From assembly GCA_040902005.1 (NCBI GenBank), contig JBBDYA010000088.1:1-50601 (forward strand): DNA of 50,601 bases, written 5' to 3'. Positions 3,315 to 35,807 of this stretch are shown here, piece after piece; within the stretch, counting starts at the first letter, position 1, and each line of letters starts with the position of its first letter. Both the position numbers and the translations under genes were made by a program. This DNA is from Gemmatimonadaceae bacterium (GTDB lineage: Bacteria > Gemmatimonadota > Gemmatimonadetes > Gemmatimonadales > Gemmatimonadaceae). Under the pieces are notes generated by a model, which saw only the letters and a list, made by a program, of their open reading frames with translations, did no database searches and was not told the origin of the DNA.

Positions 3315-3339
3315 TGCTCGTGATCTCCGGTTCCGTCAG

Positions 3340-4587
3340 TTACTTCAACGCGTGCAGGTAGGCAACGACGTCAGCAATCTGCTGATCACTCAGTCCGATG
3401 CCGACCGCCTGCTTCAGGATGGGATCGTACTCGCCGATGCCGAGCGTCGGCATCAGCACCCCCGGCTTCATCGTGCGCGAGTTCTTGATCCACGCCATCA
3501 GGTGCTTCTTGTCGTTGGGAAAGAGCCCTCCTCCGATCGTGAGCCGGCTGCCGATGTGCGTGAGATCAGGCGCCGTCCTGCCGATCAGCGTCGGCGATCC
3601 CTTCACGGTATGACAGCCGATGCAGGTGCCGTAGGCCACCAGCTGCGCGCCGCGGGCAACGTCGCCGATCAGCGTCGTATCCACCCTCAGGGTGTGGGGG
3701 ATCGGCGTGTGCGGCATCGCGTGGTCGGGCAGCCGCGCGAAGGACATGAAGCCCGCCTGTGCCGGCGCCGCCGGCGCCGCCGGCGCTGCGGCCGGTGGCC
3801 GTGGTGCCGCCGGCTGTGGTGCGGCCGCGGGCGCGCCCGGCAGCTGCACGAGGACCGCGCCCGGACGCTGCTGGTTCGCCACCCAGGCATCGAACTGCTC
3901 GGGCGTCACGGCGAACGCGCGGAAGCGCATGTTCGCGTGCGACGTGCCGCAGTACTCGGCGCAGAAGCCGTTGAACGCGTCCTCGGTGGTGGAGTCGGGC
4001 GTGAACCAGAGGTAGTTCGTCCGGTTGTTCACCATGTCCCGCTTGCCACCCAGCGCCGGTACCCAGAAGGAATGGATGACGTCCACCGTCTTGAGGTGGA
4101 AGTTCATCGGGCGCCCGATCGGCATGTAGATCTCGTTCGCCGTCGTGAAGTCGTAGTCGAGGTAGCGGAACTCCCACCACCACTGGTGTCCGATGACCTC
4201 CACCTGGATCGCGTCGGCGGGCGCGGCGCCCTGCGTCTTGAACATCGTCTGCACGGTGGGCACGGCGATGATCGCGAGCACCACGGCGGGAATCACGGTC
4301 CACAGGATCTCGAGCCGCGTGCTCCCGTGCACCTGTTTGGGGGTACGCGGTGAGTCCGGCTTGTGGCGGTAGCGCCAGAGCGCGTAGATCAGCAGCGCTT
4401 CCGTGAAGACGAACACGATGGTGCCGAGCCAGATCAGCAGCGTGAAGAGCGAGTCGACGTCGCGATTGAACTCCGTGCGGGAATGGAAGACGGAATTCGG
4501 ATTCTGAGTGCACCCCGCGATCAGCGAGGTGAGTGCGACCGTCAGCGCGGCGTTGCACCGCCAGCGCGGGCGGGAATCAGCGGGCAT
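3340..4587 (-). CDS. ctaC: Cytochrome c oxidase subunit II with C-terminal cytochrome c (caa3 type), lipoprotein
   Basis: Lipobox LIAGC, GHQWWW, DVIHSFW, CuA motif CAEYCGTSHANM, Pro/Ala linker, heme c motif CIGCH; start set at ATG 4587. Confidence 0.95.
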   Translation of the reverse strand: MPADSRPRWRCNAALTVALTSLIAGCTQNPNSVFHSRTEFNRDVDSLFTLLIWLGTIVFVFTEALLIYALWRYRHKPDSPRTPKQVHGSTRLEILWTVIPAVVLAIIAVPTVQTMFKTQGAAPADAIQVEVIGHQWWWEFRYLDYDFTTANEIYMPIGRPMNFHLKTVDVIHSFWVPALGGKRDMVNNRTNYLWFTPDSTTEDAFNGFCAEYCGTSHANMRFRAFAVTPEQFDAWVANQQRPGAVLVQLPGAPAAAPQPAAPRPPAAAPAAPAAPAQAGFMSFARLPDHAMPHTPIPHTLRVDTTLIGDVARGAQLVAYGTCIGCHTVKGSPTLIGRTAPDLTHIGSRLTIGGGLFPNDKKHLMAWIKNSRTMKPGVLMPTLGIGEYDPILKQAVGIGLSDQQIADVVAYLHALK

Positions 4588-5159: not shown

Positions 5160-6224
5160 TCATTTCACCCGCTCCATCCTGTCGTTCTCGCTGAGCTTTC
5201 GCCCCGCGCGCGCCTCCGGCTTGCCATCCACGAGCACCACGTCGGCGGTGAAATCGAAGGTGCCCCGGTACGCCGCCGATCCAATCGCGTACGCGTCCAC
5301 CGGCACCCCCTCTTCCTCGAACTCCGCCACCCGGTGGGCGTCGAACCCGCCCGATACGACGATCTGCACGTCGCCGAACCCCTCACCGTCGAGGGCGTTG
5401 CGCACGTTCCACACGAGCTGCGGATTCACCCCTGTGGGGCGGAAGGCGCCGAGCAGCGGCAGGACGGATTTGTCCACCATCGTGTCGGACGTATCCAGCC
5501 GCACACCCCACAGGCGATCGCCGAGCGCGCGGGCGACATCCACGCTCGTCTTCGCGACGTCGTTGTCATAGTCCACCAGCGCGAGCAGGGGGAGGTTCTC
5601 GTCCAGGTGCTTCGCCACCTGGCGCGTGGCGGCGGCGGTGTCGCCACCGAACGAGGCGATGAGCGTGTGCGGGGTCGTGCCCATCACCTTGCCGGACCAG
5701 AGCGCGGCCTGCGCCTGCGTGGACACCTGCCTGGCGCCGCCGACCATCGCGGCGAACCCGTCGCCCTGCTGCAGCAGCCAGTGTTCATCGCGGGCGCCGA
5801 GGAAGAACACCGACTTGGGCCGGGCCGCCTCGACGATTGCACGGATGTTCGAGCACACCTTGGTGCGGTGGCCCAGGACGCCGAGGTACAACGTCTCGAG
5901 ATGCGCGAAGGCGGCATAGTCGCCCTCGATGGTCATGACGGTGTCCCACGCTTCCAGCACGTCGCCCTCATACAGCGCGTGAACCGTCAGGGCGCTCCAG
6001 TCGGCGACACCCTGCTTCAGGATGGCGATGGTCTCGTCGATCCCGGACAGCGCGCCATCCTGCTTGGCACTCACCTGAAGCAGCACGTGACGCCGGGCTC
6101 GAGTGCCGCGCATCACGTCCGCGGCGAGCGAGCCATAGCGGTCCGAGTACTCACCCGCGGTCAACTCCTCCGCGGGAAGCCGGAACACCGACGGATCCAG
6201 CCGTTTGCGACGGCGGGGAGTCAC
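5160..6224 (-). CDS. Nicotinate phosphoribosyltransferase-like protein (NAPRTase/QPRTase family)
   Basis: YSDRY, FLGAR, GTTPHTLI, GVRLDTS, IVVSGGF motifs; GTG start overlaps the aspA stop. Confidence 0.85.
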   Translation of the reverse strand: MTPRRRKRLDPSVFRLPAEELTAGEYSDRYGSLAADVMRGTRARRHVLLQVSAKQDGALSGIDETIAILKQGVADWSALTVHALYEGDVLEAWDTVMTIEGDYAAFAHLETLYLGVLGHRTKVCSNIRAIVEAARPKSVFFLGARDEHWLLQQGDGFAAMVGGARQVSTQAQAALWSGKVMGTTPHTLIASFGGDTAAATRQVAKHLDENLPLLALVDYDNDVAKTSVDVARALGDRLWGVRLDTSDTMVDKSVLPLLGAFRPTGVNPQLVWNVRNALDGEGFGDVQIVVSGGFDAHRVAEFEEEGVPVDAYAIGSAAYRGTFDFTADVVLVDGKPEARAGRKLSENDRMERVK

Positions 6225-8080
6225 GGGTTGCCCGTCATCGCGTCCGGATTGAGCAACCGGTCCAGCTCCTCACGCGACAGCAGCTTCTGCTCGAGCACGA
6301 GGTCGTACACTCCGCGACCGGATTCGAGCGCGACCTTGGCGATGGCCGTGGCCTTCTCATAGCCGATGGTCGGCACCAGCGCCGTGACGACGCCGATGGA
6401 CTGTTCGACGAACTGGCGCATGCGGGACGGGTTGGGCGTGATGCCGTCCACGCATTTCTGCTGCAGCACCACGCAGCCGTTACGCAGCGTATCGATGCTG
6501 CGCAGCAGCCGGTACGCGATCACCGGCTCGAACACGTTGAGCTGCAGCTGGCCGGCCTCCGCGGCGATCGTGACGGTGACGTCGCCGCCGATGACGTCGA
6601 AGCACACCTGGTTCATGACTTCCGGGATCACGGGATTGACCTTGCCCGGCATGATGGACGATCCCGGCTGCATGGGTGGCAGGTTGATCTCGCCCAGCCC
6701 GGCGCGGGGCCCCGAACTCAGCAGGCGCAGATCGTTGCAGATCTTCGAGATCTTCACCGCGCAGCGCTTGAGCACGCCGGAGACCTGGACGAAGGCCCCG
6801 GTGTCTGCCGTGGCCTCGATGAGATCGGGCGAGGTGATGAGGGGCAGGCCGGTGATGCGTGCCAGGTGCGCGCGCACATGCTCCGCATAGCCGGCCGGGG
6901 CGTTGATGCGGGTGCCGATCGCGGTGGCGCCCATGTTGATCTCGCGAATCAGTGCCTGTGCCTCGCTCAGGCGCTCCACATCCTCCAGGATGGTATGCCC
7001 GAATGCGGTGAATTCCTGGCCGAGCGTCATCGGCACCGCATCCTGGAGCTGCGTCCGTCCCATCTTCAGGTGCGGCGAGAACTCTTCCCCCTTGGCGAGA
7101 AAGGCGGCGGCGAGCGCGGACATCGCGCCGCGCAGCGATTCGATGCTGACGTGGAGCGCGAGTTTCACGGCCGTGGGGTACACGTCGTTGGTGGACTGGC
7201 TGAGGTTGACGTGGTTGTTGGGATGCACGGTGTCATAGTCACCACGTGGGCGCCCCAGCAGCTCGAGCGCGCGGTTCGCGATCACCTCGTTCGCGTTCAT
7301 GTTGGTGGATGTCCCGGCGCCTCCCTGGATCGCGTCCACCAGGAAATGCTCGTGATGCCGGCCAGCGCGGATCTCCTCGCTGGCGCGAACGACGGCGTCG
7401 GCGACCGTCTTGTCCAGCAGTCCGAGGTCCGCGTTGGTCTGCGCGGCCGCGGACTTGACCGCCCCGAGCGCCTCCACGAGCGTGGGGAGTTCCCGGATCG
7501 GCACGCCCGTGATCGGGAAGTTCTCGAGCGCGCGCATGGTCTGAATGCCGTACAGCGCGTCGTCCGGCACGTCGCGCTCGCCGAGCATGTCGCGCTCCCG
7601 CCGGGAGCGCGAGCCGGTGAATCCCAGTGAGCGGCCCCTGCCCACGAGCGTGGCATCGGTCGCCGCGAGGCGGCGCGAAATCGCGCGCGCGGCCCGGCTC
7701 ACGAGGGCGGCGTACACGGCGGGATGCTCCTTGATCATCACCCGGAGCTGCTCGAGCGGCAGCACGAACGCCGTGGTGGTCTGGAGCGCCCGCGCGGTGG
7801 TGCCGTGCGCGGAGTCGTCCATCAGGACGCCTTCCCCGACCGCCTCGCCGGCGCCAAGCGTCGCCAGCCGCTCCGACCGTCCGTTGAGACTCTTCTCGAT
7901 CGAGACGAGGCCCGAGGTGAGGATCGCCATGAACTGTCGCTGGGCGCCTTCGTGAAAGAGAATGGTCTCGGACTCGAAGGTCCTGGGGGTCACGATCTTT
8001 GCCAACTGGTGCAGCACCGACGGGTTCAGCGTCTGGAGAAACTCCGCCCTGCGCAGCTGGTCGCGAATGGTTGCTGACAT
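6221..8080 (-). CDS. aspA: Aspartate ammonia-lyase with N-terminal cyclic-nucleotide-binding domain
   Basis: Fumarase/aspartase signature GSSIMPGKVNP, QGGAGTSTNMNANEV, QSTND, KMGRTQLQDA; first ~145 aa resemble a Crp-type cNMP domain (LFHEG, GEAVGE, TARA). Confidence 0.92.
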   Translation of the reverse strand: MSATIRDQLRRAEFLQTLNPSVLHQLAKIVTPRTFESETILFHEGAQRQFMAILTSGLVSIEKSLNGRSERLATLGAGEAVGEGVLMDDSAHGTTARALQTTTAFVLPLEQLRVMIKEHPAVYAALVSRAARAISRRLAATDATLVGRGRSLGFTGSRSRRERDMLGERDVPDDALYGIQTMRALENFPITGVPIRELPTLVEALGAVKSAAAQTNADLGLLDKTVADAVVRASEEIRAGRHHEHFLVDAIQGGAGTSTNMNANEVIANRALELLGRPRGDYDTVHPNNHVNLSQSTNDVYPTAVKLALHVSIESLRGAMSALAAAFLAKGEEFSPHLKMGRTQLQDAVPMTLGQEFTAFGHTILEDVERLSEAQALIREINMGATAIGTRINAPAGYAEHVRAHLARITGLPLITSPDLIEATADTGAFVQVSGVLKRCAVKISKICNDLRLLSSGPRAGLGEINLPPMQPGSSIMPGKVNPVIPEVMNQVCFDVIGGDVTVTIAAEAGQLQLNVFEPVIAYRLLRSIDTLRNGCVVLQQKCVDGITPNPSRMRQFVEQSIGVVTALVPTIGYEKATAIAKVALESGRGVYDLVLEQKLLSREELDRLLNPDAMTGNP

Positions 8081-8214
8081 TCGGGGCAAGGTATCCCCCG
8101 CTGGCGGTTCGAGCGAGGGATGCGGGCGCGGCTGCCGGCCGCGCGGACCGCAGCTTGCTGGGCGCCCCGGGATAGCCTATCTCCCACCGACCCCCAGCAC
8201 ACAGGAGCTTGTCC

Positions 8215-25427: not shown

Positions 25428-27134
25428 CTAGCTGGGCAATGCCGGCCGCGGCTGCGAGGGGCGAGGTGCGTGGGGGGGGGCGTCGGCGAGCGCGTCTGGC
25501 GTGGCCGCGGCTCGCATGACCGCCGGATCGGCCAGCTTGATGCGGAAGAACACGGCGAGAATGTCGGGATCGAACCCGCGGCCCATGTCGGCTTGCATCA
25601 GGCGCAATGCCTCCCGCGGCGCGAAGGCCCGGCGGTACGCGCGGTCGCTCGTCAAGGCATCATAGACGTCGGCGACACACAGTATTCTCGCGGCAAGCGG
25701 GATGTCCTCTCCCGCGAGGCCATCGGGGTATCCGTGGCCATCCCACCGCTCGTGGTGACCCCGTATCATGGGGAACACATCCCACGGGAAGTCGATGTCA
25801 CGCAGGAGCTCGACGCCGGCCACGGGGTGCTTCTCCATTTCGCGGCGCTCGTCCGGGGTGAGCGGTCCCGGCTTGTTCAGGATGTCCGAGTGCACGACGA
25901 TCTTGCCGACATCATGCAGCAGGGCTCCCACGCGAAACCAGAAAAGGTTCGACTCGTCGAACCCCATGTCGGTCGCGATGGCGGTGGCATCGTCGGCGAC
26001 ACGCTGGCAGTGGCCCGCCGTGTACTCGTCCTTGGATTCGATGTTCTGCGCCCATTCCTCCACCGCGTCATTGAACCGCTGCTCGAGCAGGCGCATCCGC
26101 CGCCGGATGTCAGCGAGGTCCTGCTGGGAGCGCAGATTGGAAAAATGCCGATGCGAAAGGCTGAGGGCCTGGAGCGTCGCGCGATTCCGGCCGAGGAGGA
26201 GAAAGAGTTCCGCTTGCTCGCGGGCGATTTCCGCGCCAAGCAGCAGATCCTCCCGCGCCATGGCTTCCTCGTACGCCATGCGCAGAAAACTGTCGGCGTC
26301 TGCAAGCCGGTTCGATTCTCGGGCAATGACTCCCGCGTGCTTGTAGGCCTCGGCGATGAGTCGCCTTTCGTGCAGTGACCCCGCCTCGAGCAGAATGCGA
26401 TCACACGCCGACTTGGCATTGGTGAAATCCCGCTTCGCTATCAGGAGCGCCACCGTGTTTACCTCGACCATGAGGCGCGTCCATCCGTCGCCGCAGGCCT
26501 TGGCGAGCGCGTGGGACTCGACGTAGGTGCGTGCCGCCTGGTCCCAGTTCTCCAGCCTGACATGGGCCAGGCCGATGTTGTTCAGCAGACGCGCGACATC
26601 CTCGAGCAGGCCCAGCGACCGATATCGGTCGAGGCTGTCGCGATAGTGCTCGAGTGCGCGCTCTGCCTCTCCGTGCATGCTCGCGATGACCCCGAGGTTC
26701 TGTTCCACCATGGCGATGAGCCGCTCGTCCCCGGCGAGACGCGCCATTCGGCTCGCCTCTTCGTACAGCTGCCGTCCCTCCTCGAGCAGTCCGCGCTGGA
26801 CGTAGCTGATGGCCATGACGTTGACCGTGTGCGCGACTTCGCTGGAGTTGCCGCAGGCCGTGGCAGCCGCGTGCGCCGCCGTCAGACAATCCACGCCCGC
26901 CTCCACGTCGCCATCGTCCAGGTAGGTGCGTCCCACCCGTCGCAGGATGGTTGACGCGGCCGTCGCTTCGGTCGCGTCCCTGAGCAGGTATAACGCCCCT
27001 TCGTACCGCTGGCGAGCAAGTTCGCGGCGGCCAGATGCGGCGGCTCGATGCGCCTCGTCCATCAACGCGGCCGCGAGCGCGCCGGACGCGGGGATCGCCG
27101 TGCTGGGTCGGGGTGGTGAACCGGAGTCTGTCAC
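25428..27134 (-). CDS. TPR-repeat + HD-GYP phosphodiesterase
   Basis: GTG 27134 overlaps the upstream stop (GTGA); TPRs (QNLG, NNIG); YTAGHCQRV, LLHDVGK, HHERWDGHGYP, ADVYDALTSDRAYR. Confidence 0.9.
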   Translation of the reverse strand: MTDSGSPPRPSTAIPASGALAAALMDEAHRAAASGRRELARQRYEGALYLLRDATEATAASTILRRVGRTYLDDGDVEAGVDCLTAAHAAATACGNSSEVAHTVNVMAISYVQRGLLEEGRQLYEEASRMARLAGDERLIAMVEQNLGVIASMHGEAERALEHYRDSLDRYRSLGLLEDVARLLNNIGLAHVRLENWDQAARTYVESHALAKACGDGWTRLMVEVNTVALLIAKRDFTNAKSACDRILLEAGSLHERRLIAEAYKHAGVIARESNRLADADSFLRMAYEEAMAREDLLLGAEIAREQAELFLLLGRNRATLQALSLSHRHFSNLRSQQDLADIRRRMRLLEQRFNDAVEEWAQNIESKDEYTAGHCQRVADDATAIATDMGFDESNLFWFRVGALLHDVGKIVVHSDILNKPGPLTPDERREMEKHPVAGVELLRDIDFPWDVFPMIRGHHERWDGHGYPDGLAGEDIPLAARILCVADVYDALTSDRAYRRAFAPREALRLMQADMGRGFDPDILAVFFRIKLADPAVMRAAATPDALADAPPHAPRPSQPRPALPS

Positions 27135-28159
27135 GCCGATGCGCGTGCGAAGTCCGGCAGTTGCTTCGCGTCCCGGAGCTTGCGCGCGAGACGCGGGCGC
27201 GAGATGCCGAGCATTCGGGCAGCCGCCGAGCGATTCCCTCCGGTGATGCGAAGCGCGATCTCGATGGCTTCGCGCTCCACGACGGCCAGCGATTTTCCAG
27301 TGCGTGGAATGCGGATCTCTCCACCGGAGTCCAGTTCCAGCGACGACGACCGCCGCTGGATGAGCAGGTGCTCTGGTCGAATGGTGCGCTCCTCGCCGCT
27401 GAGAATCGCGGCGCGCTCGATCACATTGCGCAGTTCGCGAACGTTGCCCGGCCAGCGGTGCGAATCCAGCGCCTCGATCGACGCGGGCGCCAGCACCTTG
27501 ATGCGGCCGTGTTCGTTGACGGACTCCGCCAGGCAATGCTTCGCGATGAGCGGGATGTCCTCGCGGCGCTCACGCAGCGAGGGAAGCGAGATACTGAAGA
27601 CGTTGAGGCGATAGTACAGATCTTCCCGGAACGTACCGGTCGTGACCGACTGTTCCAGCAAGGGGTTGGCGGCGGCGATCAGCCGGCACCCGATCTCGAT
27701 CTCCTCCGTGCCGCCCAGGAGACGCACCCGGCGCGACTCCAGGACGCGCAGCAACTTGGGCTGGAGTGGGTAGGGAAGCTGATGGATTTCGTCCAGAAAC
27801 AGCGTACCGGATCCGGCGAGCTCGAACAGGCCGCTCTTGCGCTTGCGCGCGTCGGTGAACGCGCCGCGCTCGTGCCCAAAAAGCTCGGATTCCAGCAGGG
27901 TTTCCGGGATCGCCGCGCAGTTCACCGCGACGAAGGGTTGCTCCGAATTGGGTGACGCGTAATGAATGCCGCGCGCAAACAGTTCCTTGCCCGTGCCCGT
28001 TTCCCCGAGCAGCAGCACAGTGGTGCGCGGCGCATCAGCCACGCGGCGCGCGAGTTCCAGGGCATCCGTGATTGCCGCGCTCTTGCCGAGAATGTTCTGA
28101 AAGCCGAAGTCGGGCGATCCCGCCCCGCGCGCTGACGTGATGGTGGCTGGCGCGCTCAT
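27131..28159 (-). CDS. Sigma-54-dependent activator (bEBP: AAA+ and Fis-type HTH) with no N-terminal regulatory domain
   Basis: [63 protein letters not shown] 28159 overlaps the upstream stop (ATGA). Confidence 0.93.
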
Positions 28160-29223
28160 GCCGTGGCCTCCGCCACCGCCTCGGTTTCCTCCGCACTCGG
28201 CCGTCGAAGCCGAGTCTGCAATCCGGCAATCACTCCGGCGAACCCTGCAAGCCGCGCGAGATCGAGCGCGCGCCGCCAACATTCCCGCGCGCGGGCCAGT
28301 TCCCCGCAGTCCCGGCATGCGTCGCCAAAGTCTGACAGCACCTCGACTCGGAGGAGCGCATCCTCGGTGAGGTCGGCCAGCGCCGCGGCCCGATTCAGAA
28401 GCGTGAGCGCCTGTGCCGATTCCGGATCGCGGGCCCGAGTCACCCGGGCAAGGGCCCGGAGTGCCGCGGCGCGGCGCGTATTGTCGCTTCGCTGCTCGGC
28501 GATTCCAAAGGCGTGGGCCGCCGCGAGTTCCGCGGCTTCCAGGCGCCCCATCTCCACAAACAGCGCCGAGCGATTCTCTTCCACCGTGCCCTCGGAGACC
28601 ACGTCCTTGAGTTCGCAGGCAAGGTCCCGGGCGCGGTCCAGTGTGTCCAGGGCCCGCGCTGTGGCGCCTTCTCGCGTGTACAGCACGCCAAGATTGTTGA
28701 GAACCCAGAGCGCGGCGTCCCGCTGCTCCTCCTGCTCGAATGCGACCAATGCCAGCCGGAAATGTGCAATGGCTTCATCGGTGCGCCCCTGAACGTCCGC
28801 GAGCACGCCAAGGTTTTGCTGCACCATCCCTGAAAGCCGGCGGTCCCCAAGACGGTGCGCCAGGCGCGCGGATTCGCCGTACCAGCGTTCCGCCGCGAGA
28901 AGATCGCCGCGGAAATGCGCCACCGTGCCCAGGCAGTTGAGGGCGTGCGCCCTGCCGGGCTGATAGCCCAGCGAATCGGCCACCGCGAGGCTCTGAGAGT
29001 ACAGCTCCGCTGCTGCCGAGTGACTGCCGCGGTCGCGAAGCACCGATCCTTTCCAGCGCAGGACGTCCGACAGGGCGTCACTGGGCCCGGCGGGAAGCAG
29101 CAGGCCGAGGGCGTGGTCGCATGCTTCGATCGCGTAGTCGGGATTGCTCCCACGCAGCCGACTCAGCGCCTCGCGGGCAAGGGCTCGTGCGTCTTCCAAC
29201 GGAGCCCCTCGTTCAAACTGCAT
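28156..29223 (-). CDS. Stand-alone TPR-repeat protein
   Basis: Repeated helical hairpins (ALNCLG, VQQNLG, VLNNLG, VEENRS); no signal peptide or enzyme domain. Confidence 0.88.
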   Translation of the reverse strand: MQFERGAPLEDARALAREALSRLRGSNPDYAIEACDHALGLLLPAGPSDALSDVLRWKGSVLRDRGSHSAAAELYSQSLAVADSLGYQPGRAHALNCLGTVAHFRGDLLAAERWYGESARLAHRLGDRRLSGMVQQNLGVLADVQGRTDEAIAHFRLALVAFEQEEQRDAALWVLNNLGVLYTREGATARALDTLDRARDLACELKDVVSEGTVEENRSALFVEMGRLEAAELAAAHAFGIAEQRSDNTRRAAALRALARVTRARDPESAQALTLLNRAAALADLTEDALLRVEVLSDFGDACRDCGELARARECWRRALDLARLAGFAGVIAGLQTRLRRPSAEETEAVAEATA

Positions 29224-29286
29224 ATTGCACCCGCCTTTCGTATGCACCGCGACGTTGAGTACTGCCCGAGTACGTCCTCGCGCAGA

Positions 29287-29916
29287 TTACTCGCTGCCGT
29301 CACTGCTGGAGCCGCGACCGGAGGCCAGGATGTAGCCTGAGAAGTGCCCGACCGGGAACGTGGCGGTCTTCGTCAGGAGGTTGACGCTGGCCGAGATGAC
29401 TTCCGTGACCGTGGCAAGCCCCGACTCCGTCAGCTCGAGGTCATCCGTGGCGAAGTACGCGCCGCTCAGCACGGGAAGCGACAACAGCCCGCCGGCCGTC
29501 GTGCCGCTCAGCTTCTGCGTCAGCGAAATATTCTTGCTGAACACGAGGCCATGCGGTTCGAACCGGTACGCGACTGGCGCACCGGCGAGCGCCGTCACCG
29601 TGATGGTCGTGGGCGCCGAAACCGCGCCGGCGGGAACGGAAATCGACAGCCCCACGGCGGAATTGCTTGACGACCCGCCGCCCGTGCCGACCGTGAAGGA
29701 CCAGGACACATCGCTCGCGAGCGGCGTCGTGCGATTGACGGGTGGTATCAGGATCGACGTCACCGTGCTGATCGTGTTGCCCAGCAATCCGCCAAGCAGC
29801 GATTGGCGCTCGGCAGGTGCCTGACGTGGCGGGCCAGTGACGGCCGCTTCAGTACACCCTGCCACCACCAGCGACGCTGCTGAAAGTGCCGTGAGTAACC
29901 TGCCGCGCGTTCCCAT
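29287..29916 (-). CDS. Lipoprotein with ZU5-like beta domain and C-terminal HFS motif
   Basis: GGAG RBS before ATG 29916; lipobox VVAGC; GGG...GLSISVPAGAVSAPTTITV...FEPHGLVFSK pattern typical of ZU5; ends GHFSGYILASGRGSSSDGSE. Confidence 0.8.
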   Translation of the reverse strand: MGTRGRLLTALSAASLVVAGCTEAAVTGPPRQAPAERQSLLGGLLGNTISTVTSILIPPVNRTTPLASDVSWSFTVGTGGGSSSNSAVGLSISVPAGAVSAPTTITVTALAGAPVAYRFEPHGLVFSKNISLTQKLSGTTAGGLLSLPVLSGAYFATDDLELTESGLATVTEVISASVNLLTKTATFPVGHFSGYILASGRGSSSDGSE

Positions 29917-29955
29917 TGTCGAACTCCGGTTGGACGTTTCTATGGCGTCCTCCAT

Positions 29956-29972
29956 AGCAACGTCCGGTCCAA
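29956..29972 (-). promoter_or_regulatory. Sigma-54 (-24/-12) promoter of the lipoprotein-TPR-bEBP-HD-GYP operon
   Basis: TTGG-ACCGGACGTT-GCT on the minus strand (GG-N10-GC, TTGCT), 40 bp upstream of ATG 29916. Confidence 0.7.
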
Positions 29973-30107
29973 ACAGTTAAGTGCTTTTGCTGCAAGTGGT
30001 TAAGCCAGCAAACACTCTGTGACGCTCAGCACAACTGTATCATATCGTGTCAACGTGCGTAGCTGGACTATAACACCACGATACAGAATCACTGTCCTGT
30101 CAGCAAC

Positions 30108-30132
30108 AAAACGGCCCCGCGTGGCGGGGCCG
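30108..30132 (-). terminator. Intrinsic terminator after the ABC permease gene
   Basis: CGGCCCCGC-N3-GCGGGGCCG then TTTTGTT on the minus strand. Confidence 0.75.
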
Positions 30133-30170
30133 CTGATGGTGCGAAGGGCACTCCCTGGAGCTCCTCGAAC

Positions 30171-31391
30171 CTATTCGTACCGCAACGCGGTGATCGGATC
30201 GAGGATGGCCGCGCGACGGGCTGGCCACACGCCAAAGATGACGCCCACGGCGGCCGAGAATGCGAAGGCGAGGGCGATGGCGGCCGGATCGACCTGCACG
30301 TTCCACTGGAATGCCCGGCTCATGGCCGCGGCGCCGCCACTGCCGGCGACGATGCCCACGATGCCGCCAAGACAGCACAGCACCACGGCCTCGATCAGGA
30401 ACTGCCAGAGGATGTTCGCGCGCGTCGCACCGAGCGCCTTGCGAATGCCGATCTCGCGGGTGCGTTCCGTGACGGACACCAGCATGATGTTCATGATGCC
30501 GATTCCGCCCACCAGCAGGCTCACCGCGGCGATGCCGGACAGCAGATACGTGAACACCTGCGTCGTCTCACCGAGCGTGTTCAGGAAATCCGCCTGGCTC
30601 CGCATCTGGAAATCGTCCGGACGATCCTGGCGGAGGCGGTGCTCGCGGCGAAGCACCTTCTGGATGCCCGCCATCGCCTCCGGGATTCTCTCCTCAGACA
30701 CGGCGAGCACGCTGATGGAGCGAAGCCGGTTCGTGCCGAAAACGCGAAATCGACCAGTGTTGATCGGAATCAGGATCTGTTCGTCTGGGTTGCCGAAGGG
30801 TGACGCCTGCCCCTTGGACTCGAGCACGCCGACCACGGCGAACTGGATGCCGCGAATGCGGATGTTCTCGCCAAGCAGCGCGTCGGGTGTCGACAGGCCC
30901 ATGTTCGTCGCGACTGCCGGACCGACGACCGCGACCCGCTGATTGCCCTCATCCTCCATTCGCGTGAACATCCGCCCCGCCATCAGCTTGTATTTGCGTA
31001 CTTCGAGGTAGTTGGAGGAGGTACCGACCACCGACGCGCTCGCGTTCCTGTTGGAGAACGTGATCTGGAGGTTGCGGCTGATCTCCGGCTGCACGGCGAG
31101 AATGCCTTCGCCGCGCTCCTCCAGCGCCTTCGCGTCCTCCATGATCAGCCGGGCGTTCTGATCCATGACCACGACGCCCATGCCGCGCTGCTGCCCCGGC
31201 GTGACCGTCAGCAGCGTGGTTCCCAGGGACGCGATGCGGTCCTTGACCGCGGTCTGCGCACCGGTGCCGAGCGCGACCATCGCGATGACGGCCGCGACGC
31301 CGATGACGATGCCGAGCATCGTGAGCATCGAGCGCAGCTTGTTGGCCCGCAGTGCCGCCAGCGCGACGGCGACGGTCTCTCCGAACAGCAT
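30171..31391 (-). CDS. MacB/FtsX-like ABC transporter permease
   Basis: RSMLTMLGIVIGV, SLLVGGIGIMNIMLVSVTERTREIGIRKALGA, PARRAA.LDPI.ALRYE. Confidence 0.95.
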   Translation of the reverse strand: MLFGETVAVALAALRANKLRSMLTMLGIVIGVAAVIAMVALGTGAQTAVKDRIASLGTTLLTVTPGQQRGMGVVVMDQNARLIMEDAKALEERGEGILAVQPEISRNLQITFSNRNASASVVGTSSNYLEVRKYKLMAGRMFTRMEDEGNQRVAVVGPAVATNMGLSTPDALLGENIRIRGIQFAVVGVLESKGQASPFGNPDEQILIPINTGRFRVFGTNRLRSISVLAVSEERIPEAMAGIQKVLRREHRLRQDRPDDFQMRSQADFLNTLGETTQVFTYLLSGIAAVSLLVGGIGIMNIMLVSVTERTREIGIRKALGATRANILWQFLIEAVVLCCLGGIVGIVAGSGGAAAMSRAFQWNVQVDPAAIALAFAFSAAVGVIFGVWPARRAAILDPITALRYE

Positions 31392-31410
31392 GGGATCTAT
31401 TCCTGCCGGA

Positions 31411-33114
31411 TCAACGGCGGCCGCCGCCAGGCGTCGCGCCCTGGCTCATGCCCGGCACGCCGCCGCCCATGTTCTGGCGTATCCGGTCGGCACTCTGCTC
31501 GCGCAGGGCCTGGAGCGAGAGCGCAGCGAGCAGCGCGACCTCCTCGCCTTCCTGCAGTCCGCTCACGACCTCGGTATAGTCGAAATTGCCGGCCCCGAGC
31601 ATCACCATCCGCGGCTCAAAGGTGGTGCCCTTCACGACGAAGACAAGCGCTGCCCGCACGCGCTCGCCGCCGCCGCCGCGTTCGGTGTTGCCCAGCTGCA
31701 ACTCCGGCTGGCCGACCGTGGCGGGCGCCGTCTGGCGCTGCGCGCCGCCGGCGTTCGCCGGGGTGGCTGCAGGCGAACCGCCGCTGGGCGCTGCGTTGCC
31801 GGCCGGGCGCATCTCGCGCATCCGGCAGGCGTTCGCGATCCGGGCATCCACGCCGAGCGCGGCGTAGATCGTCTGCGATTCTTCGCGCATGGCGTTCCGA
31901 TCGGCGTCGGCGGCGCGCATGCGATCGCGCAGTGCGTCGAGCTTCTTCGCTTCGGCGGGCTTCTTCTTCAGTGCGGTTTGGACCGCCGTGCACTCCGCAT
32001 CGGTGACCTGGGGCGACTGGAACTGGCGCTGCTGCGTGGGGTCCAGCGCGACTTCGCCAGGCGATGAGGTGACGCGGCCCTGTTGCCTGGCGCCGGTGGG
32101 CTGGCCGCCCCGCATGCCTCCGCGGCCGGCGCCGGACTGCGCGCGCATCTGCGCTTGCACGCTGTCGGGATTGAGGCCGAGCAGCGGCGCCGTCGCCATC
32201 GCCTCACGCGTGTTCCGGATGGCGTCGTTCGGCACGGCCAGCACATTGAGGCGCTGGTCGATCTGCACCTGCACTTCGCCATTCATCCCCGGCTTGAGCG
32301 CGCCGTCGGCATTGCTGAGCGTGACGAGCACCGGGAACATCGTGACACCCTGGTTGACGACGGCCTGCGGTTCGATCTTCTCGACCACGCCGTTGAAGCG
32401 CCGGTCGGGGTAGGCATCCACGATCACGATCGCGGGCTGGCCGGAGCGCACCTGGCCGATGTCCGTCTCGTTGAACTGCGCGCGCATCCGCACACGCGTG
32501 AGATCGGCCATCTTGAGCAGCGTGGTGCCGCCGCTCACCCCACCCGTCGCGGACGTGATGACCATGCCTTCGGACACGGTCCGCTCGATGATGGTCCCGG
32601 CGACCGGCGCAGAGACGGTGGCGTCTTCCAGACGCTGCTTGGCCAGGTCCAGGTTGGCCTTGGCACGAATGAGCGCGGCCTGCGAGTTCGCGAAGTCCAG
32701 CGCCGCGGTTTCGTGCTCCTGCGCGGTGATGACGCGGGCGCCGAACATCTCGTCCGAGCGGCGCTTCTGCGCGATCGAGACCTCGAGCCGGGCCTGCGCC
32801 GCCTGTTCATCGGCCTCGGCCTGGTCGTACTGATTCCGCACGTCGCGCGTATCGATCTGCGCCAGCAGCTCCCCGGGTCGCACGAGCGAACCGGTTTCGA
32901 CGTTCATCCTCGTGATCATGCCGGAAGCCTTGGACTTGACCTCCACGATGTTGATGGGCTCGACGACACCACTCGCCTGGGCGTCCACGACGATGTCGCG
33001 CCGGACGACCGGCGCCGTCTGCACGGTGGCTGGACGGCTGTTGTTGCGGTTGCAGGCGGGCGCGATGGCGATGGCCGCGAGCGCGACGAGCGGGAACAGG
33101 CGGGGGAGTGTCAT
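31411..33114 (-). CDS. MacA-like periplasmic adaptor (membrane fusion protein), lipoprotein
   Basis: VEVKSKASG, APVAGTI, NETDIGQV, LKPGMN, VVSGLQEGE; long insertion in the C-terminal half. Confidence 0.92.
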   Translation of the reverse strand: MTLPRLFPLVALAAIAIAPACNRNNSRPATVQTAPVVRRDIVVDAQASGVVEPINIVEVKSKASGMITRMNVETGSLVRPGELLAQIDTRDVRNQYDQAEADEQAAQARLEVSIAQKRRSDEMFGARVITAQEHETAALDFANSQAALIRAKANLDLAKQRLEDATVSAPVAGTIIERTVSEGMVITSATGGVSGGTTLLKMADLTRVRMRAQFNETDIGQVRSGQPAIVIVDAYPDRRFNGVVEKIEPQAVVNQGVTMFPVLVTLSNADGALKPGMNGEVQVQIDQRLNVLAVPNDAIRNTREAMATAPLLGLNPDSVQAQMRAQSGAGRGGMRGGQPTGARQQGRVTSSPGEVALDPTQQRQFQSPQVTDAECTAVQTALKKKPAEAKKLDALRDRMRAADADRNAMREESQTIYAALGVDARIANACRMREMRPAGNAAPSGGSPAATPANAGGAQRQTAPATVGQPELQLGNTERGGGGERVRAALVFVVKGTTFEPRMVMLGAGNFDYTEVVSGLQEGEEVALLAALSLQALREQSADRIRQNMGGGVPGMSQGATPGGGRR

Positions 33115-34440
33115 TTACAAGTCTCGTCCGATGGTCGCTTCGATCTGCGCGCGCGCGATGCGATAGTCCTGCCGGGCCTGAATCAGCGCGGCACGGGCCT
33201 GGTTGAGCTGCGATTGCGAGGTGAGAAGATCCAGGAGCGTGGACGCCCCCAGCGCGTACCGCTGTTGCTGCACGCGAAGATCCTCATCTGCGGCGAGCAC
33301 CGACGCCTGCTGGATGCGGATGCGCTCCTCGGCGGTGCGCAGCGCGCCGAACTGCTGCACCATGCTCTGCTGGGCGGCAAGCTGCGCGTCACGCATCCGC
33401 GCGGCCGCGTTGTCGTGCGCCACTCGCGCACGCAGGACCTGGTCTTCCCGGCCAAAATTGTTGAACAGGGGAAAATTCAGGCTGAAATTGAGACCGGAGC
33501 CGTAGAGGAACCGTTGCGCCGTGTCGCTGCTGAAGCCGTACGGGTTGGTTCCACTGCCGCTATAGCTGTACGACATGCGGATCACGGGCAGATAGGATGA
33601 TTTGGACGATTTCTCCGCGGCGCGGGCGGCCCGCAACTGCAATTCCGCCTCGCGGACGAGCGGGCCCTGCATGGCCATGGTCGCGAGCGAGGCGCTGTCG
33701 ACACTGGCCATGCGAAGGTCGAGCGTATCCACGGGATCGGCCGTGACGAGAAACGGCGTTCCCACGAGGCGCGTGAGCGATGCGCTGCCGACCCGGACGT
33801 TGTTCTGCGCCGTCAGCAGCGCGAGGCGGGCGTTGCCCACCTGGATCAGTGAGCGCAGCGAATCGGACATGGTCGCGGCGCCGGCCTGCACGCGCGCCAC
33901 CGCCGAGGCAAGCTGGGCCTCCGCCTGCTCCAACTGGGCGCGCGCCGCCGACTCCGACTCCCGGGCGGCAAGGATGTTGGCATACTCGCGCTTGACCTGC
34001 AGCGCGATGCCGTAGCGCTGCGTGATCTCGTTCGCTTCCGCCGCATCCACATCAGCGCGCCGCGCGTGCAGATCGGAGAATCGGCGGCCACCGTCAAACA
34101 GCTCGATGCTGCTGCTGAGGCCCGCGGAATAGCTGGACGGGTTTGTGACCGTCACCACCTGGTTGCGCAGCGCGTCGAACCGCTGGCCGCTCTGCGTGTT
34201 GCGGCCCATGCTGAAGCTGAGATTCGGCAGGAATGCGCCGTAGGCGGACCGGGCCGCGGAGGCCGAGGTGCGGAGCTGGCCCCGCGCCTGGACCGCCGCC
34301 GGGTTGTTCCGTTGGGCGAGCGAAACGGCCTCGTCCAGCGAGATGTGCCGCAGCGAATCGCCGGGAGACGCGGCGTCCTGCGCCTGCGCGCCCGCGAGCG
34401 GGGAGAGAAGGGCGGCGAACAGAAGAACCTGGTTCAACAT
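33115..34440 (-). CDS. TolC-family outer membrane efflux protein
   Basis: Signal peptide, ISLDEAVSLA..NNP, two OEP repeats, RYALGASTLLDLL. Confidence 0.92.
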   Translation of the reverse strand: MLNQVLLFAALLSPLAGAQAQDAASPGDSLRHISLDEAVSLAQRNNPAAVQARGQLRTSASAARSAYGAFLPNLSFSMGRNTQSGQRFDALRNQVVTVTNPSSYSAGLSSSIELFDGGRRFSDLHARRADVDAAEANEITQRYGIALQVKREYANILAARESESAARAQLEQAEAQLASAVARVQAGAATMSDSLRSLIQVGNARLALLTAQNNVRVGSASLTRLVGTPFLVTADPVDTLDLRMASVDSASLATMAMQGPLVREAELQLRAARAAEKSSKSSYLPVIRMSYSYSGSGTNPYGFSSDTAQRFLYGSGLNFSLNFPLFNNFGREDQVLRARVAHDNAAARMRDAQLAAQQSMVQQFGALRTAEERIRIQQASVLAADEDLRVQQQRYALGASTLLDLLTSQSQLNQARAALIQARQDYRIARAQIEATIGRDL

Positions 34441-34443
34441 CGG

Positions 34444-34824
34444 TTACTTGCACTCCCTGAGGGGTCTGGTGGCGGCGCGAACGCTGTCACGACGAGCCGA
34501 CTCCTGCACACGGAGTTCCAGCTTGAGGCGCTGCTCCGGGGTCAGCACCGCCAACACCTGCTCGTGCGCCGCTTTCTTGATGGAGTCGAGCTGCGGGCGG
34601 ACGGGCTTCATCGCGGCGCTGACCTGGCAATTCCGCTCGTCCAGCACGGAATCCATCGTGGAGCGCTGAGCCTGGCTGAGCGCGAGGTCGTCGTACATGC
34701 GCATGCGTGGTGCCCAGTTCTTCGGCTGATCGCTCAGGACGTGATCGGCCGAAAATCCGAGGAGTCCGCCGATGAGAACGGCTCCAACGAGGAACATCAA
34801 CGCCTGCTGTTTCGAACGCTGCAT
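34444..34824 (-). CDS. Membrane-anchored periplasmic helical protein (Spy/CpxP/heavy-metal-sensor-like)
   Basis: N-terminal TM, LALSQAQ and VLTPEQ (LTxxQ-like) motifs. Confidence 0.65.
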   Translation of the reverse strand: MQRSKQQALMFLVGAVLIGGLLGFSADHVLSDQPKNWAPRMRMYDDLALSQAQRSTMDSVLDERNCQVSAAMKPVRPQLDSIKKAAHEQVLAVLTPEQRLKLELRVQESARRDSVRAATRPLRECK

Positions 34825-34836
34825 GGTCTCGAATCC

Positions 34837-35214
34837 TTAACGGGAAGTCATCAGATAGCGGAACGTGGCCTCGCGCTGCCCCTGGAGCATCGGGCGCACG
34901 GCTGTTTCGATCGGAAGCGTGGTTGGTGTCAGCATGGCTTCGTACGCCACGTCGTGCTCCATCTGCCGCGCGCGGAAGAGCGCGATGCCGACGGCCATCA
35001 GGGCGACTGCCGCGGCGAGAAGGGCCGGCCGCATCCAGCGGTCCAGCTCGTCCCACCAGACGGTCGTGCCCGCGCTCTCCGTGAGTCGCGAAAGAATCCG
35101 CGCCTCGAGGCCGCGCCAATACGCACCGTCCGCGGGCGGGGCATACAGCTCCCGCAGTCCGCGGGCGGTCTCATCGTCGCCACCATCGCTGTGCAGCTTC
35201 AGGTAGTCATTCAT
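34837..35214 (-). CDS. Probable anti-sigma factor (single TM)
   Basis: ATGA-coupled to the ECF sigma; YWRGLEARI cytoplasmic part followed by a TM helix. Confidence 0.65.
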   Translation of the reverse strand: MNDYLKLHSDGGDDETARGLRELYAPPADGAYWRGLEARILSRLTESAGTTVWWDELDRWMRPALLAAAVALMAVGIALFRARQMEHDVAYEAMLTPTTLPIETAVRPMLQGQREATFRYLMTSR

Positions 35215-35807
35215 GAATCGCTCCGTACGTCCTTCAGCAGGCGCCGCAGCGCGGCGCGTGCATGGTGCAGGTCCGACCGGGCCGTTCCCTCGGGAATTCC
35301 GAGCGTGCCGCCGATCTCGCCGTGCGTGAATCCTTCAACGTCGTGCATCACGATCACCGCGCGCTGCCGCTCCGTCAGATGCGTCAGCGCGCCAGACAGC
35401 CTCCGGCGCAGCTCGTCGGCTTCGCCCGGGTCCCGAAAGGGCATGGCCACGTTGTCCGGCAGCTCATCCGCGTCGCGCACCTTGCGCCGCCGGACCAGGT
35501 CCAGCGCGGCGTTGGCCACGATGCGATTGAGCCAGGCGCCGAAGGGCTGGTCAGAATGGAACCGGTCCAACGCGCGGAACGCGTGGAGGAATCCGTCCTG
35601 AACGGCATCTTCGGCATCTTCATGGGAGAGCACGATCGCCCGCGCCACCGCGTAGGCCCGCCGCTGGTGCAGGCGCACCAGCTCGGCAAACGCGGAATGG
35701 CTCCCCTTCTGGGCAGCGATCACGTAGTCGCGTTCCGTCAGCGCCTTCGCCGGCTCACCCTGCATTGGCGGCGAAAGTAGCGGTCGAATCGCAACGGCTG
35801 CGGTCAT
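35211..35807 (-). CDS. ECF-type RNA polymerase sigma factor
   Basis: AFAELV, DAEDAVQDGF, FGAWLNRI, region 4 LTERQRAV...EIGGTLGIPEGTARSDLHHAR. Confidence 0.95.
   Translation of the reverse strand: MTAAVAIRPLLSPPMQGEPAKALTERDYVIAAQKGSHSAFAELVRLHQRRAYAVARAIVLSHEDAEDAVQDGFLHAFRALDRFHSDQPFGAWLNRIVANAALDLVRRRKVRDADELPDNVAMPFRDPGEADELRRRLSGALTHLTERQRAVIVMHDVEGFTHGEIGGTLGIPEGTARSDLHHARAALRRLLKDVRSDS

Follow-up and report, generated by a model that had tools for sequence, protein, structure and literature searches.

Does a small bacterial lipoprotein cut its own chain just before its last β-strand and then keep hold of the piece? The question is raised by an open reading frame (ORF) on the minus strand of a 50,601-nucleotide stretch of DNA from a Gemmatimonadaceae bacterium (contig JBBDYA010000088.1 of assembly GCA_040902005.1; here, the window). 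The ORF, at 29287..29955, encodes 222 residues with the C-terminal end ...VGHFSGYILASGRGSSSDGSE / ...TATFPVGHFSGYILASGRGSSSDGSE. A sequence-only reading of this DNA had called the protein a ZU5-like lipoprotein and had proposed that its His-Phe-Ser (HFS) tripeptide is a bacterial analogue of the autoproteolytic sites of PIDD1, Nup98, and adhesion G-protein-coupled receptors (GPCRs). The translation agrees that the lipoprotein ends in HFS with a 17-residue tail; positions 29287-29346 span exactly His-Phe, the 17 residues, and the stop codon (Table 1). We put at about 0.6 the probability that this lipid-anchored, single-domain ZU5/GAIN-type sandwich cuts itself between Phe and Ser, folded outside the cytoplasm.

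Conservation of the HFS motif

Relatives were assembled as 219 close homologues, 957 representatives at E ≤ 1e-3, and 267 other family proteins, which were used for the motif counts. HF[ST] stands near the C terminus of 264 of these 267 proteins, with Ser in 261 and Thr, the sole substitution, in 3. Gly follows in 264 of 264, then Tyr (n = 204) or Trp (n = 60), and then [ILM][VLI][AS][ST]-G-R. The three exceptions are a fragment that stops before the motif (P0134), a protein with an unrelated C terminus (P0253), and one that reads NFP (P0248). His, Phe, and Ser/Thr are invariant across families that share <20% identity, and subfamilies at E of about 1e-10 also keep HFS; judged from these alignments, conservation of the motif is greater than chance. 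In the homologues, the residues that follow HFS are conserved along with it. Two RNA libraries contain contigs from a relative with ∼94% identity. Every listed difference in the codons for HFSG (29344, 29338, and 29335) is synonymous; in the far tail of the same relative, codon 29302 changes Ser to Arg.

Fold of the domain and position of the motif

An AlphaFold2 (AF2) model based on a 35-sequence alignment is an all-β sandwich without any helix of four or more residues; its mean predicted local distance difference test score (pLDDT) is 82, with values of 93-98 over most of residues 61-200. When the model was compared with the PDB using Foldseek, the first 11 matches listed (ranks 1-16) were ZU5 domains of ankyrins and UNC5b, with a best E of 7.6e-5 and 10 matches at E ≤ 0.001. 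Most of the next few listed were also ZU5; the ZO-1 ZU5 domain stood at rank 18, and adhesion GPCR GAIN domains appeared from rank 19 (probability 0.99 for 4dlo_B). VIA alignments gave the highest Z scores to the ZU5 domains of ankyrin-B (4d8o; Z 11.2, root mean square deviation 3.0, 123 residues aligned), ankyrin-1 (3f59; 10.5), and UNC5b (3g5b; 8.2), covering model residues 68-205. Lower scores were obtained for the GAIN domains of BAI2 and BAI3 (7.4), the FIIND of rat NLRP1 (7crw_A; 6.6), and the GAIN domain of latrophilin (4dlq; 6.2), the last of which is the query used in the preprint on bacterial MAIN domains that we discuss below. By best Z, the model is thus closer to ZU5 than to GAIN. 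Pfam ZU5 is matched at E ≤ 0.01 by 18 of 35 family members (best, 8e-5), and ZU5 is found on 38-51% of the members of the family's atlas clusters. A sequence-profile search of the PDB yielded only matches at E of about 1, to ZO-1 ZU5, ankyrin ZU5, and LppS. The label "ZU5-like" is correct because the top Foldseek and VIA matches are ZU5 domains and because 18 of 35 members match Pfam ZU5; as modeled, the domain is a ZU5-type β-sandwich.

In the AF2 model, HFS forms the turn between strands 184-192 and 194-199, which places it before the last β-strand, as the sequence-only reading had it. The VIA alignments support this position by where their ranges end, not by residue-by-residue superposition, for three domains with known cut sites or counterparts of them. 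GPR56 is cut at H381-L382/T383 (PMC13123842); in the alignment to its cleaved chain (5kvm_A, 230-382), the model range ends at Phe192, opposite the P1 residue L382, consistent with the suggested likeness to the GPCR proteolysis site (GPS). Rat NLRP1 is cut between F968 and S969, ten residues before the end of its aligned range at 978 (PMC8081665), and the model range ends at 202, 10 residues past Phe192. In UNC5b, L677 is the counterpart of CARD8 F296 (PMC3210808); its range ends at 686 and that of the model at 201, 9 residues past Phe192.

The tail after the predicted cut

Conservation of the tail is limited to its first nine residues, SG[YW]xx[AS][ST]GR. Beyond this strand, homologue tails are 59% Gly, Ser, Glu, or Asp and vary in length, and the corresponding filler in the window's lipoprotein, GSSSDGSE, is probably disordered to judge from the model. 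Across the family, tails measure 7 to 40 residues, most commonly 16-19; distant subfamilies stop right after the strand, 7-8 residues past the cut (HFSRYMLASG, HFSDYVIAW, and HFSEYAIAW). Because only the strand residues are kept and lengths vary, the conserved unit is "HF-S plus one strand," not a 17-residue peptide, and the earlier notion of the 17-residue tail as a unit has to be given up; its last eight residues are variable filler. We considered and rejected a C-terminal sorting signal or a terminal aromatic of the outer membrane protein type: the last residues are mostly Glu, Gln, Tyr, or Arg, and the motif lies inside the folded domain.

Predicted self-cleavage and the case against it

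Self-cleavage appears likely because the domain has a ZU5 fold, because HF[S/T] is retained in nearly all relatives, and because Phe is aligned to P1 of cleaved GPR56. Based on homology, motif invariance, and motif position, we place cleavage with retention of the strand at a probability of 0.6 to 0.7. By homology with PIDD, Nup98, FIIND, GAIN, and bacterial MAIN domains, the mechanism would run as follows: the backbone is under strain from the buried Phe; the Ser hydroxyl, with the His assisting, would attack the Phe carbonyl; and an N-to-O acyl shift would produce an ester that water then hydrolyzes. The freed SGYILASGR, with its variable acidic end, would remain bound in the sandwich as its last strand, cut but held, and would depart only if the domain were unfolded or degraded or the strand displaced.

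The closest precedent is bacterial. MAIN (Microbial Autoproteolysis INducing) domains are GAIN-like, and their prototype is YfkN of Bacillus subtilis (Brogan and Rudner, bioRxiv 10.64898/2026.05.12.724683). According to the main text of that preprint, YfkN and other MAIN domains are cut at the F-S bond of HFS, the site having been shown by Edman degradation; replacement of Ser by Ala abolishes the cut, Thr restores it, and the products stay associated. Cleavage at HF-S as a kind of bacterial reaction, which the sequence-only reading had put forward by analogy, is therefore established for these domains. This precedent raises the odds that HFS of the lipoprotein is active and, equally, takes away some of the novelty of a "bacterial analogue" as such.

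It is conceivable that the ester is resolved by some other nucleophile, so that the Phe carboxyl becomes joined to peptidoglycan, a lipid, or a partner protein, as Hedgehog is to cholesterol. The N-O acyl-shift chemistry would be the same (PMC3210808), and a tiny peptide has no obvious use. We nevertheless regard this outcome as very improbable, in that no ZU5, GAIN, or MAIN domain is known to behave in this way and no acceptor-related gene is conserved near the lipoprotein loci.

Several observations weigh against self-cleavage itself. At the top of the structural matches stand ZU5 domains without self-cleavage (ankyrin, UNC5b, and ZO-1); cleaving domains match less well, with Z scores of 6.2-7.4, a range that the aligner calls common, and the positional match to their cut sites is one of range ends. 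The lipoprotein scores 17.9 bits against Pfam ZU5 (PF00791), for which the gathering cutoff is 21 (E = 0.0038), and the match covers residues 86-121 only, reaching the first strands and not the HFS end. No invariant His is found ∼26 residues upstream of HFS to correspond to the distal catalytic His of FIIND (rat NLRP1 H942), and the only other invariant His of this family, within EPHG, is lost in a second family that we describe below. There is also the matter of purpose: freeing 7-17 residues has no obvious use under the "release an ectodomain" logic of MAIN and GAIN proteins, and since all operon partners are cytoplasmic, a link from the cut to these partners is unexplained.

Alternatively, HFS could be kept while the bond stays uncut: the motif, with its Phe buried and its His and Ser hydrogen bonded, would then anchor the structure of a binding module, and the operon would simply have the lipoprotein as its envelope product. 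The nearest solved folds are indeed non-cleaving ZU5 domains that serve protein binding. Moreover, mutation of the Nup98 His affects cleavage only slightly, and FIIND needs a distal His and a Glu (PMC3210808), so the HFS tripeptide alone is no guarantee of cleavage. We think an uncut bond unlikely, however. HFS is not retained in ZU5 domains that do not cleave; in UNC5b, Leu takes the place of Phe (PMC3210808), which means that the ZU5 fold does not require the motif. The invariance of the three positions over such divergent families, with replacement only by Thr, the other hydroxyl nucleophile, is hard to square with a purely structural role, and almost all tested bacterial MAIN domains that carry the motif were cleaved (10.64898/2026.05.12.724683). 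If there is no cut, what is left is an uncharacterized, phylum-restricted lipoprotein in a conserved σ54 operon.

Self-cleavage with the strand held in place is thus the reading we prefer. Two further suggestions made from the sequence go beyond it: a Stachel-like agonist role for the strand is speculation because no receptor is attached to it, and release on unfolding or envelope stress is likewise speculation.

Gene start, layout, and relatives

The real start of the gene is probably Met14 (ATG at 29916-29914). Homologues and a 209-residue database copy (P0002) begin there, GGAG precedes this ATG by 7 nt, and the first ATG comes immediately 3′ of the promoter-like element (29957-29971), before the expected transcript start. 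A lipobox-like motif is present in 240 of 264 homologues. Within the disordered tether, the family alignment consensus shows a conserved LLGGLLG (29800-29830, minus strand), and an N-terminal extension, PPVxRxTPL, in which P, R, and L are invariant, comes before the region that can be aligned with solved ZU5 domains.

A search of NCBIfam with the lipoprotein returned no family. Longer relatives were sought among 8000 candidates and none emerged, which is weak evidence; three long open frames end in a ZU5-like domain, and only 7 residues follow in each. A 777-residue frame at locus L041 (G119:C33), 1912-4242 on the plus strand, lacks HFS, and its match to the ZU5-like profile is confined to the first strands; it may be a larger protein whose copy of the fold does not cleave.

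Table 1. Features of the lipoprotein gene, its protein, and its operon in the window
Feature	Coordinates	Strand	Remarks
TPR-HD-GYP gene	25428..27059	-	Predicted cyclic di-GMP (c-di-GMP) phosphodiesterase; start approximate; Pfam HD_5, HD, TPR_12; synteny
σ54 activator gene	27131..28159	-	Pfam Sigma54_activat, AAA_lid_14, HTH_8; AAA+ and Fis-type HTH only; GAFTDA loop
TPR protein gene	28156..29247	-	Likely start 29223; Pfam TPR_12, TPR_MalT; no signal peptide
Lipoprotein gene	29287..29916	-	209 codons from Met14 plus stop; from the first ATG the ORF reaches 29955
Stop codon	29289-29287	-	
Variable C-terminal filler, GSSSDGSE	29290..29313	-	pLDDT 47
Tail, SGYILASGRGSSSDGSE	29340-29290	-	
Last β-strand, SGYILASGR	29314..29340	-	Conserved part of tail; positional match to the post-cut strand of FIIND and GAIN
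His-Phe-Ser, predicted self-cleavage site	29338..29346	-	Scissile bond between codons 29341 and 29340
Ser codon	29340-29338	-	
Phe codon	29343-29341	-	
His codon	29346-29344	-	
ZU5-type β-sandwich	29317..29754	-	Residues 55-200 of the 209-residue form
Tether from lipid anchor to domain (∼33 residues)	29755..29853	-	pLDDT 43-55; carries LLGGLLG
Signal peptide with lipobox VVAG-C (LVVAG-C)	29854..29916	-	Cys codon 29856-29854; read from the translation, no dedicated predictor
Shine-Dalgarno GGAG	29924..29927	-	7 nt 5′ of ATG 29916; block nearly conserved in the five closest loci
-24/-12 promoter-like element, TGGACCGGACGTTGCT	29956..29971	-	GG-N10-GC; motif match upstream of the lipoprotein gene
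Terminator-like hairpin	30110..30134	-	11-pair stem plus T-run, at the end of the upstream MacB-type permease gene

Promoter and upstream boundary

By its sequence context, the lipoprotein gene heads an operon behind a σ54-type promoter. An element comparable to the one in the window, scoring at least 12 of 15, occurs in 32 of 33 loci close to the gene start and in 14% of random 500-nt windows from the same loci; in the five closest loci, it forms the only long invariant block in an intergenic region that is 65% identical. The genome contains rpoN. We also looked for a σ70-like promoter in 29100-30300 and found none. A second σ54-like site near 30000 (TGGCTTAACCACTTGCA) was rejected; its spacer is 11 nt, and it is not conserved. 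The RNA contigs of the ∼94% identical relative do not cover positions beyond 30012, and two of them end at 29920, a weak hint at most, as start, strand, and level cannot be read from them. About 20-35 nt upstream of the −24 element (29990-30002, minus strand), the five closest loci share a conserved block, TAA-N4-TTG, in an otherwise divergent region; this block could be part of an activator or integration host factor (IHF) site.

The terminator-like hairpin, as predicted from its stem and T-run, sets the lipoprotein operon apart from the genes upstream. These genes, at 30171-35807 on the same strand, encode an extracytoplasmic function (ECF) σ factor, a 210-residue protein without a family, a TolC-like outer membrane efflux protein (OEP), an HlyD-type adaptor whose C-terminal half is long and of low complexity, and a MacB-type permease with no ATPase gene next to it. 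We considered the MacB/HlyD/TolC-type genes as part of the system and rejected them; they are linked to the lipoprotein gene only in the four closest loci, and the hairpin lies between. Elsewhere in the window, at 6224-8089 on the minus strand, is a gene for an unusual combination of domains (cNMP_binding, Lyase_1, and FumaraseC_C), in which a cyclic-nucleotide-binding domain is N-terminal to a fumarase/aspartase-type lyase.

Operon partners and synteny

Downstream of the lipoprotein gene, the predicted operon continues with genes for a TPR protein, a σ54 activator that lacks a sensory domain, and a TPR-HD-GYP protein (Table 1). The activator ATG overlaps the TPR stop codon as ATGA (28156-28159, minus strand), which suggests translational coupling of the two. 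This arrangement recurs: an activator gene adjoins the lipoprotein gene in 28 of 32 loci, 27 times downstream and once upstream. In 15 of the 32, a separate TPR gene stands between the two, directly downstream of the lipoprotein gene; in 4, a 1195-residue GGDEF-AAA_16-TPR gene takes its place; and in 8, the activator is directly next. A convergent GGDEF-AAA_16-TPR gene is found in two more loci, one locus stops 117 nt past the lipoprotein gene, and L024 shows none of these partners.

With this promoter, TPR protein, activator, and TPR-HD-GYP protein, the operon amounts to a σ54/c-di-GMP control module in which the lipoprotein is the envelope member; the sequence-only reading makes no mention of this context. 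None of the partners has a signal peptide; they are thus cytoplasmic and the lipoprotein exported. An operon made up otherwise of cytoplasmic signaling proteins hints at a signaling role for the cut, but any such role is something that we infer. On a conservative view, the operon is a self-controlled σ54/c-di-GMP module with the lipoprotein as its envelope product, and the TPR proteins could act on each other in the manner of RcbA/RcbB (PMC12282931).

A second HFS family and the pairing with TPR genes

The same genome encodes, on contig C129, a second lipoprotein of 210 residues (L035, 7113-7745, plus strand) that ends ...RRIKHFSGYVITSGRECEEGETCEEGGGQ, with a Cys-rich acidic end after ...RRIKHFSGYVITSGR. 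It belongs to a second family of at least 254 proteins in which HFSGY is invariant, the preceding R-R-I-K nearly so, and two Cys residues in the body are invariant as well. Both families conserve an acidic residue about 19 residues upstream of the HFS His. The second family has no Pfam match. It is related to the first at the profile level only (hhalign probability 98.1%, E = 1.4e-13), and the best PDB match of its model is again ankyrin-B ZU5, albeit weak (E = 0.09). A σ54 site before the C129 gene is a poor match only, judged by eye.

We found the first family in 36 of 121 sampled Gemmatimonadota genomes (21 of 76 genera; this includes the unpublished G057), several of which have 2-4 copies; for the second family, the number of genomes with a clear presence is 3 of the 121. 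Of the 32 genome loci, 31 have named records, and these are all from Gemmatimonadota, but these records do not bound the range of the family because the scan pattern was family specific.

The C129 gene lies directly downstream of a 1183-residue GGDEF-AAA_16-TPR (GGDEF-STAND-TPR) gene (L035, 3384-6935, plus strand). GGDEF-AAA_16-TPR or TPR-HD-GYP genes adjoin all five second-family copies examined (L035-L039), one from this genome and four from two other genomes. Lipoprotein and TPR genes are also duplicated together in tandem arrays (L044, L045, and L038). In L044 (G036:C5) and L045 (G047:C15), the genes follow one another on one strand as lipoprotein, lipoprotein, TPR, TPR-HD-GYP, lipoprotein, TPR, and σ54 activator, and the lipoproteins end HFSRYMLASG or HFSRYILISGVWVCVEGC....

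This pairing raises the possibility that the freed C-terminal peptide (SGYILASGR...) is itself a signal, released when the domain is unfolded or degraded and read by cytoplasmic TPR proteins that set c-di-GMP turnover and σ54 transcription, including that of its own operon: an RRNPP-like circuit in a diderm. In 30 of 32 loci, a TPR signaling gene (TPR, TPR-HD-GYP, or GGDEF-AAA_16-TPR) can be found no more than about 2 kb away, the second family repeats the pairing, and the tandem arrays co-duplicate it. In addition, no other block of the protein is as conserved as the tail strand, the activator lacks a sensory domain and is apparently coupled in translation to the TPR gene, and RRNPP systems use TPR domains as their peptide receptors. 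Even so, we consider a peptide signal improbable. No peptide importer gene, such as one for an oligopeptide permease, is found within the 50-kb window, and no route for this peptide from periplasm to cytoplasm is known. The tail is nearly uniform family-wide, unlike strain-specific quorum peptides, and its part in the core strand and in catalysis explains its conservation well enough. Regulators that merely control the lipoprotein gene would give an equal neighborhood, so adjacency is no proof of a ligand-receptor pair, and TPR-TPR contact can regulate c-di-GMP enzymes without a peptide, as with RcbA/RcbB (PMC12282931).

Comparison with known systems and significance

Among known systems, the MAIN domains come closest in setting: each is an exported, envelope-tethered β-sandwich with an H-x-S/T turn, which is HFS both here and in YfkN. 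MAIN proteins, though, are large (mean, 158 kDa) and comprise a signal peptide, adhesion or enzyme ectodomains, the MAIN domain itself, and, at the C terminus, a wall anchor; since the anchor is C-terminal and the ectodomains N-terminal, the cut frees the ectodomain. The lipoprotein does not share this architecture: it is lipid anchored at its N terminus, has no ectodomain, and ends 17 residues past the predicted cut. The MAIN authors state that the small fragment has so far been tied to no signaling (10.64898/2026.05.12.724683). Nowhere in the main text of their preprint, which is accompanied by supplementary tables on 15,000 proteins, do the words lipoprotein, Gemmatimon-, and ZU5 occur. If the Gemmatimonadota lipoprotein does cut itself, it would invert the MAIN logic, with an anchor at the N terminus and a peptide, not an ectodomain, set free.

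UNC5CL, like PIDD1 and Nup98, belongs to the eukaryotic proteins of the HFS type that self-cleave. In all three, as in the lipoprotein, this tripeptide is located where the sandwich ends at its C terminus, and the Phe is buried (PMC3210808); D'Osualdo et al. (2011) described this buried Phe of HFS/SFS along with helper His and Glu residues (PMC3210808). PIDD1, UNC5CL, and Nup98 differ in being cytoplasmic or nuclear eukaryotic proteins whose cut parts whole domains (ZU5 from UPA-DD; Nup98 from Nup96). The FIIND of NLRP1 and CARD8 resembles the lipoprotein in its ZU5-like sandwich and in the VIA offsets around the cut. In FIIND, what keeps the fragments together is the first post-cut strand, on which the ZU5 sheets clamp (PMC8081665). 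FIIND is set apart by its SF-S motif, its distal catalytic His, and the UPA-CARD effector that follows the strand, where the lipoprotein has only filler. Adhesion GPCRs, with their GAIN domain and Stachel, are cut at HL-T/S before a last, hydrophobic strand that has an aromatic residue at its third position, as here; however, the lipoprotein has neither the helical GAIN_A subdomain nor a seven-transmembrane (7TM) receptor, and its ORF stops at 29287. With no 7TM receptor on that strand, a "tethered agonist" would have nothing to be tethered to.

Zhang et al. (2012) united ZU5, GPS, and Nup98 as one superfamily and were the first to propose bacterial processing autopeptidases among them (PMC3482391). 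Their bacterial ZU5 domains are predicted ones, N-terminal in giant RHS toxins or in large surface proteins, and small stand-alone lipoproteins go unmentioned in section 8 of that article (PMC3482391). It was also the only work returned by our literature search on ZU5 in Gemmatimonadota (PMC3482391). Searches on prokaryotic ZU5 lipoproteins and on periplasmic cis-autoproteolysis or N-O acyl shift returned nothing relevant.

RRNPP systems such as Rap-Phr, NprR-NprX, and PlcR-PapR resemble the lipoprotein operon in having a gene for an exported protein with a potential C-terminal peptide beside genes for cytoplasmic TPR regulators. RRNPP precursors differ in that they are tiny, cut by proteases, and known from monoderms. 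RcbA/RcbB of Vibrio vulnificus offer another comparison, as TPR proteins that gate c-di-GMP enzymes with no need for an exported partner (PMC12282931). If the peptide were in fact a signal, the lipoprotein operon would bring an RRNPP-like circuit to a Gram-negative phylum and would give a microbial GAIN-like "tethered peptide" its first signaling role. The lipoprotein's fixed pairing, throughout Gemmatimonadota, with TPR, STAND, c-di-GMP, and σ54 regulators makes it testable whether the small fragment signals in microbes. If the cut occurs at all, the lipoprotein would be the smallest natural cut-and-hold module of the PIDD, NLRP1/CARD8, and adhesion GPCR kind, a sandwich and a strand in ∼150 residues; because it consists of one sandwich and one strand with no other domain, it would make a convenient model for how a strained Phe-Ser bond breaks and how the strand behind it is held and released.

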